A stretch of DNA of 38,922 nt from a virus. Below, piece after piece: positions 1-6,411 of the stretch (the first letter of the stretch is position 1; the number at the start of each line of letters is the position of its first letter). Under the pieces are notes generated by a model. The model saw only the letters and a program-made list of their open reading frames with translations. It was not told where the DNA came from and did not search any database. A program made the position numbers and the translations under genes. Location: the UHGV virus genome UHGV-2190349; one strand, written 5' to 3'.

Positions 1-1158
1 ATGCTCACCGTTAAGCAGATTGAAGCAGCAAAGCCGAAAGAAAAACCATACCGCCTTCTCGATGGTAATGGACTGTACCTTTATGTCCCTGTATCCGGGA
101 AAAAGGTATGGCAGCTTCGCTACAAGATTGACGGTAAGGAGAAAATCCTGACCGTAGGAAAATATCCGCTTATGACTTTGCAGGAGGCAAGGGATAAAGC
201 ATGGACTGCGAGGAAAGACATCTCGGTTGGCATCGATCCGGTAAAAGCGAAAAAGGCTTCGTCTAACAACAATTCCTTTAGTGCGATTTACAAGGAATGG
301 TACGAGCACAAGAAGCAAGTCTGGTCAGTAGGCTATGCAACTGAACTTGCAAAAATGTTTGATGACGACATTTTACCTATCATCGGCGGCCTTGAAATTC
401 AGGATATTGAGCCGATGCAACTGCTGGAAGTAATCCGCAGATTTGAAGATCGCGGTGCAATGGAACGAGCCAACAAAGCACGCAGAAGATGCGGCGAGGT
501 TTTCCGTTACGCTATTGTCACCGGAAGGGCTAAATATAACCCGGCACCTGACCTTGCAGACGCCATGAAAGGATACCGCAAGAAGAACTTCCCGTTTCTT
601 CCTGCAGACCAGATCCCTGCATTCAACAAAGCACTGGCAACATTTTCAGGAAGCATCGTATCGCTCATTGCGACTAAAGTTTTGCGCTACACAGCCCTAA
701 GAACGAAAGAGCTTCGTTCCATGCTATGGAAGAACGTCGATTTTGAAAACAGGATTATCACCATCGACGCCAGTGTGATGAAGGGACGCAAAATTCATGT
801 GGTCCCGATGTCAGACCAGGTGGTTGAACTTCTCACTACGCTAAGCTCCATCACCAAACCAGTATCAGAGTTTGTTTTTGCCGGGCGCAACGATAAGAAG
901 AAGCCAATCTGCGAGAACGCGGTATTGCTTGTGATCAAACAAATCGGCTATGAAGGTCTGGAAAGCGGTCATGGATTCAGGCATGAATTCAGCACGATTA
1001 TGAACGAGCACGAATGGCCTGCTGATGCTATTGAAGTGCAACTGGCACATGCCAACGGCGGATCTGTGCGTGGAATATACAACCATGCTCAGTATCTCGA
1101 TAAGCGCAGAGAAATGATGCAGTGGTGGGCGGACTGGCTTGATGAAAAGGTGGCGTAA
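1..1158 (+). CDS. intS: Tyrosine-type site-specific integrase (IntS-like, KplE1/CPS-53 family)
   Basis: 385-aa ORF starting at ATG; C-terminal catalytic region with HxxR and terminal Tyr (GHGFRHEFST...RGIYNHAQY); N-terminus MLTVKQIEAAKPKEKPYRLLDGNGLYLYVP matches my recollection of E. coli IntS. Confidence 0.9.
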   Translation: MLTVKQIEAAKPKEKPYRLLDGNGLYLYVPVSGKKVWQLRYKIDGKEKILTVGKYPLMTLQEARDKAWTARKDISVGIDPVKAKKASSNNNSFSAIYKEWYEHKKQVWSVGYATELAKMFDDDILPIIGGLEIQDIEPMQLLEVIRRFEDRGAMERANKARRRCGEVFRYAIVTGRAKYNPAPDLADAMKGYRKKNFPFLPADQIPAFNKALATFSGSIVSLIATKVLRYTALRTKELRSMLWKNVDFENRIITIDASVMKGRKIHVVPMSDQVVELLTTLSSITKPVSEFVFAGRNDKKKPICENAVLLVIKQIGYEGLESGHGFRHEFSTIMNEHEWPADAIEVQLAHANGGSVRGIYNHAQYLDKRREMMQWWADWLDEKVA

Positions 1159-1484
1159 TGCCACCCATCACCCACCCTGTCATCCTGTAGCGCGCTGTTG
1201 ATGAAGAACGTCACGCGCCCCAGCACCTCAACTTCCTCCGCCTCCTCCCCTTCGATCGCTTCACCATCATCAGTGATTAATGCCCTACCCATTACCCGGG
1301 CAAACTGCGTTCTGCCGCCAGATAAAATCAGCAGAACCTGATTCTGTACCAGCCTGGTGCACGGCTCGATAACGGCAAAGCCGGATGAGGTTTCCAGGAT
1401 GCGAGTGTCGACGCCAACACCGCAGATTCGCTCCGGAGTTAACCGCTGCTCTACATAGTCGCCAGCCGGCGAAGGGAAGCCCAT
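1089..1484 (-). CDS. Hypothetical acidic protein with UmuD/MucA-type N-terminal arm motif (GFPSPAGDYVEQR); possible degenerate LexA/S24-fold protein
   Basis: 131-aa ORF; ATG preceded by GGGGAGGG Shine-Dalgarno inside the upstream gene and overlapping its stop (TAATG); 3' end overlaps the int 3' end by 70 nt on the opposite strand; canonical S24 motifs (GxSM, TVKK) not evident. Confidence 0.45.
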   Translation of the reverse strand: MGFPSPAGDYVEQRLTPERICGVGVDTRILETSSGFAVIEPCTRLVQNQVLLILSGGRTQFARVMGRALITDDGEAIEGEEAEEVEVLGRVTFFINSALQDDRVGDGWHYATFSSSQSAHHCIISLRLSRY

Positions 1485-1732
1485 TACAGAACCCTCCCCA
1501 TGTTACGTAGCATCCAGAGACGGTTTTCACTGTGGTCAGGCGTCTTGTCGACAAAGAACTCTTGATAGCGCTGGATCCACTCGTTGGCGTCGACCTGGCT
1601 GAAATGCCAGTTTCTCGTGCGCAACTCACGGATGAAGTCGTTCGTATGAAGGCACTGATAACCCTTTGGGTTTTGCTGTACTGCAGCGACAAATGCGCTG
1701 TGAATGTCTGATTGGCGGGGTATGATCTGCAC
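1484..1732 (-). CDS. Hypothetical protein (82 aa), first gene of a two-gene coupled operon
   Basis: ORF track; apparent GTG start immediately after AAAAAGGA; stop overlaps start of the downstream ORF; no recognisable family. Confidence 0.4.
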   Translation of the reverse strand: MQIIPRQSDIHSAFVAAVQQNPKGYQCLHTNDFIRELRTRNWHFSQVDANEWIQRYQEFFVDKTPDHSENRLWMLRNMGRVL

Positions 1733-1815
1733 TCCTTTTTACTGTTTTTATATACAGTAGTTTTAAAGGAGATGCAGATCAATGAGGCGATACCTATCAA
1801 TAATCCCGGCTGGCG

Positions 1816-3645
1816 TTACACCTGACCAAGGTCCTCTACGCTTTCCTGATCATTCAGCAAGGTAATGGCAACAGCAATTGAGGAGAGGATAGTTTTGATT
1901 TCTATGGTGTTCATCCCTTCCTTTTCCCGGACGTACTCGCATAATTTATCGACGTCAAATATCTCTCTGATGTTTGTATATTCGGCGGCTCTTTCAAGCA
2001 AGTGCACGATTTCTTCTCGCTGACCTTCGACAAATTGAGCCTGCCATGCTTGCACAGACCTTGGCGTGAATTTAACCCCGCTATCATAAGGAGCATCTGC
2101 GATATCAAGGCCAAATCTACCCTGCAATGATTTATCCCATGTCGCATTCAAAAATGGCAGAGAAACTAATTCAGGAGCCAGCTTTGCCATGACGCTGTAG
2201 TGGAACAATTCTTTGTTCCTGGCCTCCGGACTGAGCTTGAATACCAAACGCGCAACTTTAGGAGAGAGAAGTGGCATCAGTTTAATTCTGCCTGTGACGT
2301 TCTGAGCAAGAGGGCCGTTCCAATTGGAAAGACGGTTTTCTACGAAGAACTTCTCAGGTAAAACATCAAACCTTACAGATTTAATATTCTCCTCAAGCCA
2401 GCCGTAGAACCAACCTATTTGAGCGTTTTTATACAAACTGGAGAGAATGTTTAATGGATCCATCTTCTGATGGTAGTTTATGAACTTAGAAAGAATTGCA
2501 TCTTTATTGTCCATAAAGGACAGGTTTTTAAACTGCTTGGCGTGTCCGCCGGGTCCGCGATATAGCTCGCCGCCAAAGCCAGTCATATCGGACGTTATAT
2601 TTTTGATGGTGCGTTCAGCTGTTGCTCCATCCCATGGGCAAATATAACTTTCCATTCTGTAGGAATGCCAGTTAAGTTTTTCCCATGAATTAGCAAAATC
2701 CTGAGCTTTAACTTGTGGAGCCTTAACGTTAGCGACGTGCTTAACGCCGATTTTGCTGGCTATGTTCTGAGCGCAACTTATCTCCGGGCTTCCTTCCGGT
2801 CCGTTCGTAAATGTGGTAATCCTGTCTTTGAATCCTGCACCCAATGCCAGTGCAAGGACAAGACGAGAGTCCTTACCACCGGTCAGTGATAAGCGGAGTT
2901 CACCGGGAATGTTTTCACTCGCAGCCTTAAAGTTTTTCACCAATTCATCTACGATCAAATCCCAGTCATCACCTGAAAGGTCATTTAGATATTCAGCATC
3001 CTCACTTGAAGGCCAGATCTGATTCTTAAATTTATTGATATTTACTGTTGTTGAACCGATTGGTGACTTTAAATAGCTACCTGCCGTGATTGTATTTACA
3101 CCTTCAAATGGTGTTTCATTTCCAAATATATTGGCATGCCCAATCAACCAGCTCAATGAGGAAAGGTTATATTTACCATTGCCTCGTAATTCATGTAATG
3201 CAGATGCTCTGTTACTTACGCAGGTCACACCATCAATTATTGTGTAATAAATAGGACAGGTGCCTGAGAAATCGCCGAAAGCAAGGAGGCCATTCTTGGA
3301 GGTTATTGAAACGAAGTTGTAAGACCCGGAAATATTGTCAAACATGTATTCCGCATCGTTTTTTGTGGAGGCATCAAGTGCGGCGTCAGACACGTCATAG
3401 CTATCCCCCATCCTTAAAACAGGGCCATTTATCAGGCATACGCCGCTTTGCTTAGATGTTATTCTTTTTGATATTTCGCCTTCCGCATTGCCACATGCTG
3501 TATATGCCCAAGCTCCGCTACCAGATATTTTATTAGCCACCTCTACTGGCTTAAATGTTAAGTTCCTTTTTAGGGCCTGCTGCGCTGTCTCGTATAATTT
3601 CTTAACAGACTCGCTTTTTCCATTTAAAACAATAAAGTTTATCAT
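1816..3645 (-). CDS. Asparagine synthetase (AsnB) family PP-loop ATP-pyrophosphatase/amidoligase homolog lacking the N-terminal glutaminase cysteine
   Basis: 609-aa ORF; PP-loop SLTGGKDS at residues ~253-260; AsnB-like segments (ITAGSYL, FTNGPEGSPE, LLAFGDFSGTCPIYY); begins MINF with no Cys2; visibly AT-rich relative to neighbouring phage genes. Confidence 0.8.
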   Translation of the reverse strand: MINFIVLNGKSESVKKLYETAQQALKRNLTFKPVEVANKISGSGAWAYTACGNAEGEISKRITSKQSGVCLINGPVLRMGDSYDVSDAALDASTKNDAEYMFDNISGSYNFVSITSKNGLLAFGDFSGTCPIYYTIIDGVTCVSNRASALHELRGNGKYNLSSLSWLIGHANIFGNETPFEGVNTITAGSYLKSPIGSTTVNINKFKNQIWPSSEDAEYLNDLSGDDWDLIVDELVKNFKAASENIPGELRLSLTGGKDSRLVLALALGAGFKDRITTFTNGPEGSPEISCAQNIASKIGVKHVANVKAPQVKAQDFANSWEKLNWHSYRMESYICPWDGATAERTIKNITSDMTGFGGELYRGPGGHAKQFKNLSFMDNKDAILSKFINYHQKMDPLNILSSLYKNAQIGWFYGWLEENIKSVRFDVLPEKFFVENRLSNWNGPLAQNVTGRIKLMPLLSPKVARLVFKLSPEARNKELFHYSVMAKLAPELVSLPFLNATWDKSLQGRFGLDIADAPYDSGVKFTPRSVQAWQAQFVEGQREEIVHLLERAAEYTNIREIFDVDKLCEYVREKEGMNTIEIKTILSSIAVAITLLNDQESVEDLGQV

Positions 3646-3910
3646 TTAATTCCCGCGCAAGATAATTGGCAATATTTAAAGTTGATAACTATTTGGTTAA
3701 CAGAGTAAACAACCAAGATTGTGCAATACTTGCTAGGACGGGTCAATGATTTGTGTGTGGTTTTGGGGTCTAACCACTAATTTTGATATCAGTAGTGAAT
3801 TTTACAAATGCAGGATTGAGGGTGCTCTTGCGCCACCAAAAGATGCGAATATGACGTAGCGAAAGCACCCTCTCTGTTTGGGTAGGATTGACGATTAGTG
3901 CATCAGAAAG

Positions 3911-6364
3911 CTACTTTGCTTCGAGATTTCCCACTCGTTCAGCCAGAGCCTCAAACTGCGATAGCAGCCTTTGATGATTACGACGATGAAGGGCAGCCTC
4001 CATCACTAATGCCTCCTCATATCGAATGCCATAGCGTGATCCCGCTTCAACCGCCGGAACTACTACATCGCCAGTCTCTTCATCAAGAACTTCTGGTGAG
4101 CTTTCCCACTTGTCATAACAGAAGAAAGCAAACTGGTGAGGATCAAGTCCATGACGGATAAACGCTTCTTGCGCACGCTGGGCAATAATGCCGACATGCC
4201 AACGGGCTCCATCATCTCCCTTTGCCTCTATACGGTCAATGAACTGGAACTGCACGAAATCTACTTCCGCCCAGGCATCCAGAATATCATCTGCGTACGG
4301 CGCTTCCATTAACCGTGAATCTGTCGTTTGGACGGGTTCGAGAGAACCACGAGCCAGCATCACTGGACGCGATTTTTGCCTTTCATCGGAGGTGACAGTA
4401 TACGCAGCCTGAGTGAATCCGCCCGCAAATGGACTTGAACTGGTACCAACAGTTCTGGTGTTAGCGGCGCTGGGCTGGATATTGCCGTTTACGCTCATGT
4501 TGGTGTTGATATTTACGACAGCAGAAGCAAAGCGTGCAACTTCAGTACCGGCCGACGCTTCAGTTGATGAGACGTAGAGGCCGACAGCATTTTTACTAAG
4601 GACTGCGGTTCGGGCAAATCCACTAGAATCGCGGATCTCTCCGAGCCCAACTTGATAATCGTCAGACTGCGGGCCGGTAACGTTAGTGATGCAATGGAAT
4701 ACGCCACCCATTTGGTTAAACGGATCTGTCACGGATTCAAGATGAAGGCCATCTATAATGATCTTCCCGGTATTGCTACCCCCTGACTCTATGCCTACAG
4801 GGCAATTCCTTAACGTCACGTTGGTTAGTTTTTGATATTTCCTGTTCAGGCGTAAGGCAACATTGGTGTCTCTACACACAATATTGGTTACAGAACACGC
4901 CTCTGCATCACCAAACTGCCGATCACTGGCTCCGGAGGCTGTTGTTGTCTGGTATCCGGTTATTGCGTTAGCGCACTGAATATTTGATCCGTTGCAATAT
5001 CGCTCCTCAATCCACACTGAAGCCCCAATTCTTCCGCCATCATATCCGAGACATGATATATTGCTGTAATTGACGAATGGGGATTTAATATGGAGCCCGA
5101 TGATGTCTGAATCAGTGGATTTAAATCGGTTCTGAATGACTGTGATGTTTGTAACATCACTCCATACACCGCCAGTTCCACGACTGACGGTATCGCCAAT
5201 GATCCCCTGCTTGATACGGACGCCAGCGCCGGGCGCTCCGACGTTACCAAAGTCTGACACATAAACGTTCGATACCTTCGGCGCCAATGACATTACGTCA
5301 ACGCCTGCCCAAGGGTGGGCTGGCTCGTCAAGTTGCCCGAAGTTGAAAACGAAGATGTTATTTAATTGAAACGCGCGACTGACAGACCCATTATCCTTAA
5401 TGTCGATACCATCTGCGCCGGTGTTTTCAGACCAGAATCCGTCGATGCTGCAGCCCTTATACCCGCCATTCTGAAGACCCAAGGCATAATGAGAGCAGTT
5501 CTTTACCTTGAGGCCGCGAATTGTAAGCCCCTCGATTCCTGCTCCGACAATGCCTTCAGTTTGCCGGGCGTAAGGAGTACCATTCCATAAGTAATTCCCG
5601 TCGATACAAATATCTTGAAGGCCGACGCCCCTTACTTTTGTGGTGCCGTTTTCGAGCGGTGGCTTTGACCACTGTATTACCCCATATGCAGCATCTGTGT
5701 TGTAAGCTCTTATAGTAGTAGAGTTCCATCCCTGCCCACGGAGAATAATGTTGTCAAATGGGATGCGCAAAGCAGCAACGTTTAACGTTGCGTTGGCAGA
5801 GCTAAATTCAGTCGGATCCTGATGCACCATGTATAAGGGCCGCGGGAATACAATCGTGCCCCCGCCGGCTGCACTGAGTTCCTGCGCCTTCTGCATTATC
5901 AGTCTTGCGTTCTGCAGGGCGACAACCTGGCTAACAACCCCAGGGATTACGCCAAATGAATCAGCGGTTATTTCAATGCCACCAATTAATGACGAGCCGG
6001 TACTGGAGCTTAATCTCTGGACAAAAGAAAACGGATCAACCAGGGAGCAATTTTCAAAATAGTATTGCTGAGCCCCATAAGCATCGTAAACAGCCATGCT
6101 GTAATCACTTTCAGTGACTATGGTTACAACCTGGCCATTATATACTGGGTAACCTGAGGAATTAATTTTAACTGGCTGGCTGATCTGCACCAGGGAGCCA
6201 TTTTCATTCCTGAAATAAACCGCTACCCTATTGGCTGGATTTGTTGGATCCGTGTCAGGAACACCAACATAAATATTACCGTTTGCGATAGCTTTAAAGC
6301 TTCTCGGCGTAATAAATGGGATGTACGGCATTGTTACTTGCTGGTTGGCAATGATATCTGGCAT
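3911..6364 (-). CDS. Tailspike protein with P22 gp9-like N-terminal head-binding domain and C-terminal intramolecular-chaperone (peptidase S74-like) domain
   Basis: Start set at internal ATG (MPDIIANQQ...) preceded by GGAGA; N-terminus aligns by eye with the P22 tailspike head-binding domain (RSFKA.ANG.IY.G..DTDP.NPAN); C-terminal ~159 aa begins with SDERQK (Ser-x4-Lys autocleavage motif). Confidence 0.9.
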   Translation of the reverse strand: MPDIIANQQVTMPYIPFITPRSFKAIANGNIYVGVPDTDPTNPANRVAVYFRNENGSLVQISQPVKINSSGYPVYNGQVVTIVTESDYSMAVYDAYGAQQYYFENCSLVDPFSFVQRLSSSTGSSLIGGIEITADSFGVIPGVVSQVVALQNARLIMQKAQELSAAGGGTIVFPRPLYMVHQDPTEFSSANATLNVAALRIPFDNIILRGQGWNSTTIRAYNTDAAYGVIQWSKPPLENGTTKVRGVGLQDICIDGNYLWNGTPYARQTEGIVGAGIEGLTIRGLKVKNCSHYALGLQNGGYKGCSIDGFWSENTGADGIDIKDNGSVSRAFQLNNIFVFNFGQLDEPAHPWAGVDVMSLAPKVSNVYVSDFGNVGAPGAGVRIKQGIIGDTVSRGTGGVWSDVTNITVIQNRFKSTDSDIIGLHIKSPFVNYSNISCLGYDGGRIGASVWIEERYCNGSNIQCANAITGYQTTTASGASDRQFGDAEACSVTNIVCRDTNVALRLNRKYQKLTNVTLRNCPVGIESGGSNTGKIIIDGLHLESVTDPFNQMGGVFHCITNVTGPQSDDYQVGLGEIRDSSGFARTAVLSKNAVGLYVSSTEASAGTEVARFASAVVNINTNMSVNGNIQPSAANTRTVGTSSSPFAGGFTQAAYTVTSDERQKSRPVMLARGSLEPVQTTDSRLMEAPYADDILDAWAEVDFVQFQFIDRIEAKGDDGARWHVGIIAQRAQEAFIRHGLDPHQFAFFCYDKWESSPEVLDEETGDVVVPAVEAGSRYGIRYEEALVMEAALHRRNHQRLLSQFEALAERVGNLEAK

Positions 6365-6411
6365 TTGCTGTTCTCCAGGTGCAGAAAAGCCGCACAAGCT
6401 AAAACTTGCGC

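Follow-up and report, generated by a model that had tools for sequence, protein, structure and literature searches.

Layout and promoter of the locus

The window, that is, the whole 38,922-nucleotide stretch of the virus genome UHGV-2190349 that we analysed, begins with a gene for an IntS-type tyrosine integrase on the plus strand (1-1158; Pfam Phage_integrase, E 5e-39). The integrases of HK620, Sf6 and CUS-3-like phages are 96-98% identical to its product. Convergent with the integrase gene, two small open reading frames lie on the minus strand: gene 1 (1732..1484), found as an 82-aa frame with a GTG start, and gene 2 (1484..1089), found as a frame of 131 aa. The two share a single nucleotide, base 1484, within TAATG, and the Shine-Dalgarno sequence of gene 2 (GGGGAGGG, 1492..1499, minus strand) lies inside gene 1, 8 nt before the gene 2 ATG; phage Flotzy has the identical gene 2 Shine-Dalgarno sequence. 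The coupled pair described in a first-pass annotation of this DNA was thus confirmed, with the corrections to both genes given below. Further upstream on the same strand follow an open reading frame for an AsnB-like protein of 609 aa (1816-3645) and a tailspike open reading frame (3911-6397). This order of reading frames places the pair in an accessory slot between tailspike and integrase of a P22/HK620-like prophage. In E. coli N9, the region is 98.9% identical, and the prophage is located at a tRNA-Arg beside yfdC.

The AsnB-like gene had been considered part of a possible three-gene module with the pair. Its product shows weak asparagine-synthase/PP-loop similarity (Asn_synthase E 5e-4, TIGR01536 E 6e-10). 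Among 110 fetched loci, it co-occurred with the pair only once (L029), in a locus whose three region proteins are 98.7-100% identical to those of the window. The gene was without a match among 50,697 phage records; in E. coli complete genomes, the listed matches are confined to the first 28% of the query and leave the AsnB-like part uncovered. That is, the module was not borne out, and by its distribution the AsnB-like gene is an independent, rare cargo. The slot it occupies often holds O-antigen-modifying genes.

Upstream of gene 1 and read on the minus strand lies a LexA (SOS) box (TACTGTATATAAAAACAGTA, 1740..1759), the sole CTGT-N8-ACAG in the window. A single match of this kind can easily arise by chance (38 of 100 shuffles), but we accepted the box because it is conserved across loci: it precedes the operon in 14 of 15 annotated loci, all but HK620, where there is no such operon, and in 78 of the 80 IMG/VR loci. 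The -35 hexamer TTGATC (1777..1782, minus strand) is invariant in an eight-sequence alignment and is followed, after a 17-nt spacer, by a -10 (TACTGT) inside the LexA box, so that box and -10 overlap. The 20-mer of the box is identical to the one upstream of E. coli K-12 umuD, and the -35 hexamer with the following TGC (TTGATCTGC) and the 17-nt spacer are those of the K-12 umuDC promoter. The phage operon therefore has a umuDC-type promoter and operator. A generic promoter scan did not flag this SOS promoter, since its -10 matches the consensus at only three of six positions. As read from these elements, the operon is of the SOS regulon type, with a consensus LexA box overlapping the promoter and predicted LexA repression. 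The first-pass annotation had proposed an SOS link, which is upheld by a box that it had missed.

The gene pair is found again, with its 1-nt overlap and a CTGT-N8-ACAG box, in the fetched annotated relatives, and in 79 of the 80 IMG/VR loci gene 1 lies directly upstream of the UmuD'-like gene. Family-wide, purifying selection acts on both genes, with a dN/dS of 0.09-0.43 for gene 1 and of 0.07-0.13 for gene 2. Judged from this recurrence, which exceeds chance, the operon is a cassette carried by many enterobacterial prophages.

Both genes of the window deviate from the family forms of 79 and 105 aa, and the earlier sizes of 82 and 131 aa hold for the open reading frames only. In gene 1, the ancestral ATG reads ATA (1723..1721), as it does in L029 and in E. 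coli N9; the fetched loci with an assignable start comprise 72 with ATG and two with ATA. The Shine-Dalgarno site AAGGAG (1732..1737, minus strand) lies 8 nt before the ancestral start, and the 82-aa frame results from a GTG, chosen by the ORF finder, that overlaps or abuts this very site. In gene 2, one T was lost just before the TGA stop; L022 and L027 still have this nucleotide. The 105-aa gene therefore reads on to 131 aa, through 27 codons antisense to the 3' end of the integrase gene (residues 105-131, 1089..1172, minus strand). Intact alleles stop 9 bp before the integrase stop, and the one of L084 ends in ...QDDRVV*; the tail in the window has a pLDDT of 35-59. The odd C-terminus, for which a recombination chimera had been suggested, is thus explained by a 1-nt frameshift. 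In E. coli N9, PGAP annotates gene 2 as a pseudogene. Given the ATA start and the frameshift tail, gene 1 is probably poorly translated from this copy and gene 2 is probably made in an altered form.

The UmuD'-like protein

For the gene 2 family, a single-sequence search gave 1,057 homologues and a profile search 2,278; nearly all are 105-106 aa long, and most bear the name 'hypothetical'. In the window, the stretch MGFPSPAGDYVEQRL equals UmuD residues 25-38 at 12 of 14 positions (E 3e-07; also against PDB 8gmt and 1umu). The N-terminus of gene 2 thereby corresponds to the Cys24-Gly25 cleavage product of UmuD, with its GFPSPAxDYxEQR arm, and bears out the earlier description of a UmuD-type arm that looks as if pre-cleaved. 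This arm is nearly invariant across the family and represents its best-conserved N-terminal feature. Plain sequence similarity to UmuD covers residues 2-15 only, and a PDB sequence search returned an arm of 19-20 residues only. It had been considered that the likeness might end after about 13 residues, with no fold similarity beyond. Instead, the family profile could be aligned from one end to the other, both to the HK140 protein of HumD type, which has 129 aa (98.1%, E 7e-14), and to UmuD of E. coli (96.5%, E 8e-10). Both profile alignments contain a gap of 11-12 residues opposite UmuD SGDSMIDGGISDG, the loop with Ser60. HumD-type and mini proteins were also joined directly by tblastn (RothD, residues 1-120, E 2e-6). 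According to model and alignment, the homologous part of gene 2 (codons 1-104; 1173..1484, minus strand) consists of the N-terminal arm and a LexA/S24 beta-fold body that is homologous to UmuD and lacks the catalytic loop. A BFVD fold search added only a homologue from HK225.

Curated models missed the protein: we obtained no match to Pfam PF00717 (Peptidase_S24), 28.3 bits with NCBIfam NF051876 (HumD, cut-off 120), through the arm only, and 16.6 bits with NF007621 (UmuD, cut-off 110). Pfam, NCBIfam and PADLOC scans gave nothing above cut-off for either protein of the operon. Only PHROGs recognised the two, with gene 2 matching PHROG 3469 ('UmuD-like protein', E 1.1e-44) and the second match being PHROG 3893 (E 5.3e-42).

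The Ser-Lys catalytic dyad of the S24 self-cleaving peptidases is absent, and the family alignments contain no invariant Ser or Lys. With the serine loop deleted as well, the gene 2 product cannot be a protease. The scissile Ala/Cys-Gly bond is missing too, as the protein starts at the Gly. On alignment and model, gene 2 thus encodes a miniaturised, pre-cleaved UmuD' of the HumD type (mini-UmuD'). The earlier interpretation therefore stands in part, namely for the missing Ser/Lys dyad and the SOS link, but not for the three-gene module or the chimera.

Since the initiator Met is removed before Gly, the Met-Gly start is apt and would leave the exact UmuD' N-terminus. [quoted passage not shown] This need for the arm in the mutagenesis function of UmuD' would account for its near invariance in the mini-UmuD' family.

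The predicted winged-helix protein

In its family form, gene 1 encodes a small protein of 79 aa (from 1723, within the open reading frame 1484..1732, minus strand) that was modelled as a winged helix (pLDDT 93). We found 340 homologues, with 79 aa as the typical form. A profile search of 1.84 billion proteins yielded only 174 clusters, nearly all of them stand-alone proteins of about 79 aa. Among the inspected profile hits, no relative carried an S24 domain except for a few entries in which gene 1 is fused to gene 2. These resemble frameshift fusions, with the MGFPSPA start still present inside them. That the pair might be fragments of one long frameshifted gene had also been considered. We rejected this candidate, since two separate genes are the rule, kept by hundreds of relatives, and since the internal Met-Gly-Phe is retained even in the fused entries. 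We likewise rejected the PGAP/RefSeq name 'PH domain-containing protein' for gene 1, which conflicts with the winged-helix model; RefSeq uses it in E. coli N9 (L012, 3882-4121), where it starts the 79-aa gene at the ATA codon.

The winged-helix gene is absent from CobraSix, L076 and BUCT711 (L009), and where both genes are present, their alleles reassort. In five loci (L100, L084, L106, L054 and L063) the UmuD'-like protein is 80-88% identical to that of the window, whereas the paired winged-helix protein is only 35-39% identical (88% versus 35% in L100). These mismatched identities point to recombination at the conserved gene junction. A mirror-tree style analysis of co-variation between the two proteins gave a moderate Spearman coefficient of 0.48, with clear allele shuffling, a value that is uninformative on physical contact.

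Our best guess, and a tentative one, is that the gene 1 product may act alongside the UmuD'-like protein, as an accessory or a regulator. A bolder proposal, which we consider doubtful, is that mobile-element Pol V systems possess a hitherto overlooked third component, the 79-aa winged-helix protein. This protein would bind or control the pre-activated UmuD' arm, or target the complex to DNA, thereby replacing RecA-dependent timing and letting prophages take over host UmuC at induction.

Relation to known systems and proposed function

As the first-pass annotation had stated, the window contains no umuC partner: local tblastn detected neither a umuC nor a dinI homologue. Of the 80 viral (IMG/VR) loci, 78 lack umuC, and it was seen in only one. 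Relatives next to umuC were found in L048 and CobraSix. In L048, the winged-helix gene is followed by a 107-aa mini-UmuD' (84% identical to that of the window) and an overlapping umuC (IMS E 2e-42, DUF4113 E 2e-25), which is split in two pieces in that contig. The L048 region (4585-5256, minus strand, and 3321-4592, plus strand) combines the cassette, the split umuC and a convergent SRAP (YedK-like) gene in a compact DNA-damage-tolerance island. In CobraSix, a LexA box precedes a homologue of 101 aa, whose gene overlaps a full-length umuC. This homologue (L008, 2986-3291) lacks the GFPSPA arm, with an in-frame stop 5 codons upstream of the ATG, and has no winged-helix gene beside it. In 11 of the 80 IMG/VR loci, as well as in mEp390, HK140, HK225 and Flotzy, the cassette shares its LexA-box region with a divergently transcribed DinI-like gene. 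Given its frequency, the phage cassette appears to join DinI-like and UmuD'-like functions.

The closest parallels are found in the HumD group. Mini-UmuD' shares its Met-Gly-Phe-Pro-Ser-Pro-Ala start with P1 HumD, N15 gp26, phiKO2 gp23 and HK140 gp28, and shares with the whole group a LexA box upstream, the usual lack of a umuC partner and a place in the accessory region of temperate phages. HK140 and E. coli PCP07014 even carry the 79-aa gene and the LexA box, with a 129-aa HumD-family gene replacing the mini gene in the same slot. The record of P1 humD contains a LexA site, lacks umuC and is annotated 'functionally complements E. coli UmuD''; complementation of E. coli UmuD' by P1 HumD is said to have been described by McLenigan et al. 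in 1999. Unlike HumD, mini-UmuD' measures 105 rather than 129 aa and lacks 11-12 residues around the catalytic serine, and unlike the humD genes of P1 and N15, its gene is usually preceded by a coupled winged-helix gene. That is, the operon belongs to the known phage HumD/UmuD' theme and is not a new system, the shortened body and the winged-helix partner being what differs.

With E. coli umuDC, the operon shares the identical 20-bp SOS box, the -35 and its 17-nt spacing, the arm and the S24 fold, and relatives of mini-UmuD' are coupled to umuC by the same type of overlap. In contrast to umuDC, the window lacks umuC and has an extra gene upstream; in contrast to E. coli UmuD, mini-UmuD' lacks the Ser60/Lys97 dyad and the 24-residue N-terminal pro-segment, and would thus need no RecA*-dependent activation step. 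Operons of the impCAB type encode a small DinI-like ImpC, then the UmuD-like ImpA and the UmuC-like ImpB. The phage operon resembles them in pairing a LexA-controlled UmuD-like gene with one for an additional small protein, and in its frequent DinI-like neighbours.

With moderate confidence, we propose that, once SOS is induced, the two-gene moron operon provides a pre-activated UmuD' analogue as partner for a UmuC polymerase. In the lysogen, LexA would sit on the box overlapping the -10 of the umuDC-type promoter, and DNA damage would lead to LexA cleavage and transcription of the operon. Gene 2, translationally coupled to the gene for the winged-helix protein, would give a 105-aa UmuD' analogue in need of no RecA-mediated processing. 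Removal of the initiator Met would expose the G-F-P-S-P-A... N-terminus, as cleavage does in UmuD, while the body keeps the S24 beta-fold without the catalytic-serine loop and hence without protease activity. Mini-UmuD' may then dimerise and insert its arm into a UmuC-type Y-family polymerase, which would be host UmuC in most prophages including that of the window, and phage UmuC in CobraSix and L048. The expected outcome is translesion synthesis once SOS is induced, comparable to phage P1 HumD. As umuC is missing from nearly all viral loci, the host-UmuC route is an assumption. Against the proposal speaks the CobraSix homologue, which is armless yet lies beside umuC and is a misfit with an arm-dependent mechanism. 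A further point against it is that D91, E93 and Y52, by which UmuD contacts RecA* (PMC9926225), are not clearly conserved in the hhalign alignment with the gene 2 family. Nor does the proposal account for the winged-helix partner, and the copy in the window bears two lesions, with PGAP flagging the same gene 2 as a pseudogene in E. coli N9.

The main rival, which we regard as possible but rather unlikely, is a decoy or brake: mini-UmuD' would not form an active polymerase but would pair with host UmuD/UmuD' or tie up UmuC or RecA filaments, and so, during induction, damp host SOS mutagenesis or the RecA* co-protease, together with the DinI-like protein that is often encoded adjacently. The deleted catalytic loop and the strongly diverged body agree with such a role, as do the DinI-like genes divergent from the same LexA box (in the 11 IMG/VR loci and the four named phages) and the lack of umuC in most loci. 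The protein is also very acidic (pI 4.4), and UmuD meets the RecA groove via acidic residues (PMC9926225). However, umuC is coupled to close homologues in both L048 and CobraSix, and a phage would hardly be expected to brake its own polymerase. In the HumD precedent, complementation is positive, and it is the arm, required for Pol V activity, that is the best-conserved N-terminal feature.

Is the operon of the window merely a decaying remnant, without current function and kept by its position between integrase and tailspike? The ATA start, where 72 other loci have ATG, the 27 antisense-integrase residues added by the frameshift and the PGAP pseudogene flag on the same gene in E. coli N9 would fit this explanation. 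Yet only the last one or two gene 2 residues are altered before the tail, and no damage is seen in the strong Shine-Dalgarno sequence of gene 2, the LexA box or the promoter. Moreover, forms lengthened to 116-131 aa are still found at 84-93% identity and contain no internal stops, and gene 2 is under purifying selection family-wide (dN/dS 0.07-0.13). We therefore consider decay unlikely, more so than the brake.

A split LexA-/UmuDAb-like regulator of phage or host genes, with the winged helix as DNA-binding half and the S24-like protein as dimerisation half, would suit the gene boundary, which falls exactly at the Cys/Ala-Gly cleavage position, the modelled fold of gene 1 and the coupling in 79 of 80 loci, but is highly improbable because the 174 clusters among 1.84 billion proteins are almost all stand-alone, no S24 repressor with a homologous N-domain was found among the inspected hits, the putative recognition helix is acidic (family pI about 8), the alleles reassort (35% versus 88% in L100) and the winged-helix gene is missing in L009, L076 and CobraSix. 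We accordingly rejected gene 1 as the N-domain of a LexA-/UmuDAb-type repressor.

If mini-UmuD' acts as a pre-activated UmuD', as we favour, mobile elements carrying it can supply error-prone DNA synthesis without the RecA-dependent delay. In E. coli, Klebsiella and Enterobacter lysogens, this would be relevant to mutagenesis and to how antibiotic resistance evolves. For a widespread family that is mostly labelled 'hypothetical' and missed by the curated S24 and HumD models, clarification would improve prophage annotation; current understanding is not overturned.

One Klebsiella gene 2 allele is indexed in 1,293 blocks of an assembly collection. The plasmids returned by a plasmid search were mostly non-mobilizable and about 45-50 kb in size, and the matches bore no annotation other than 'hypothetical protein'. 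In one Klebsiella prophage (L017, 2200-3684), a gene for a 494-aa reverse transcriptase (RVT_1), which may be of the defence type, is inserted just upstream of the operon.
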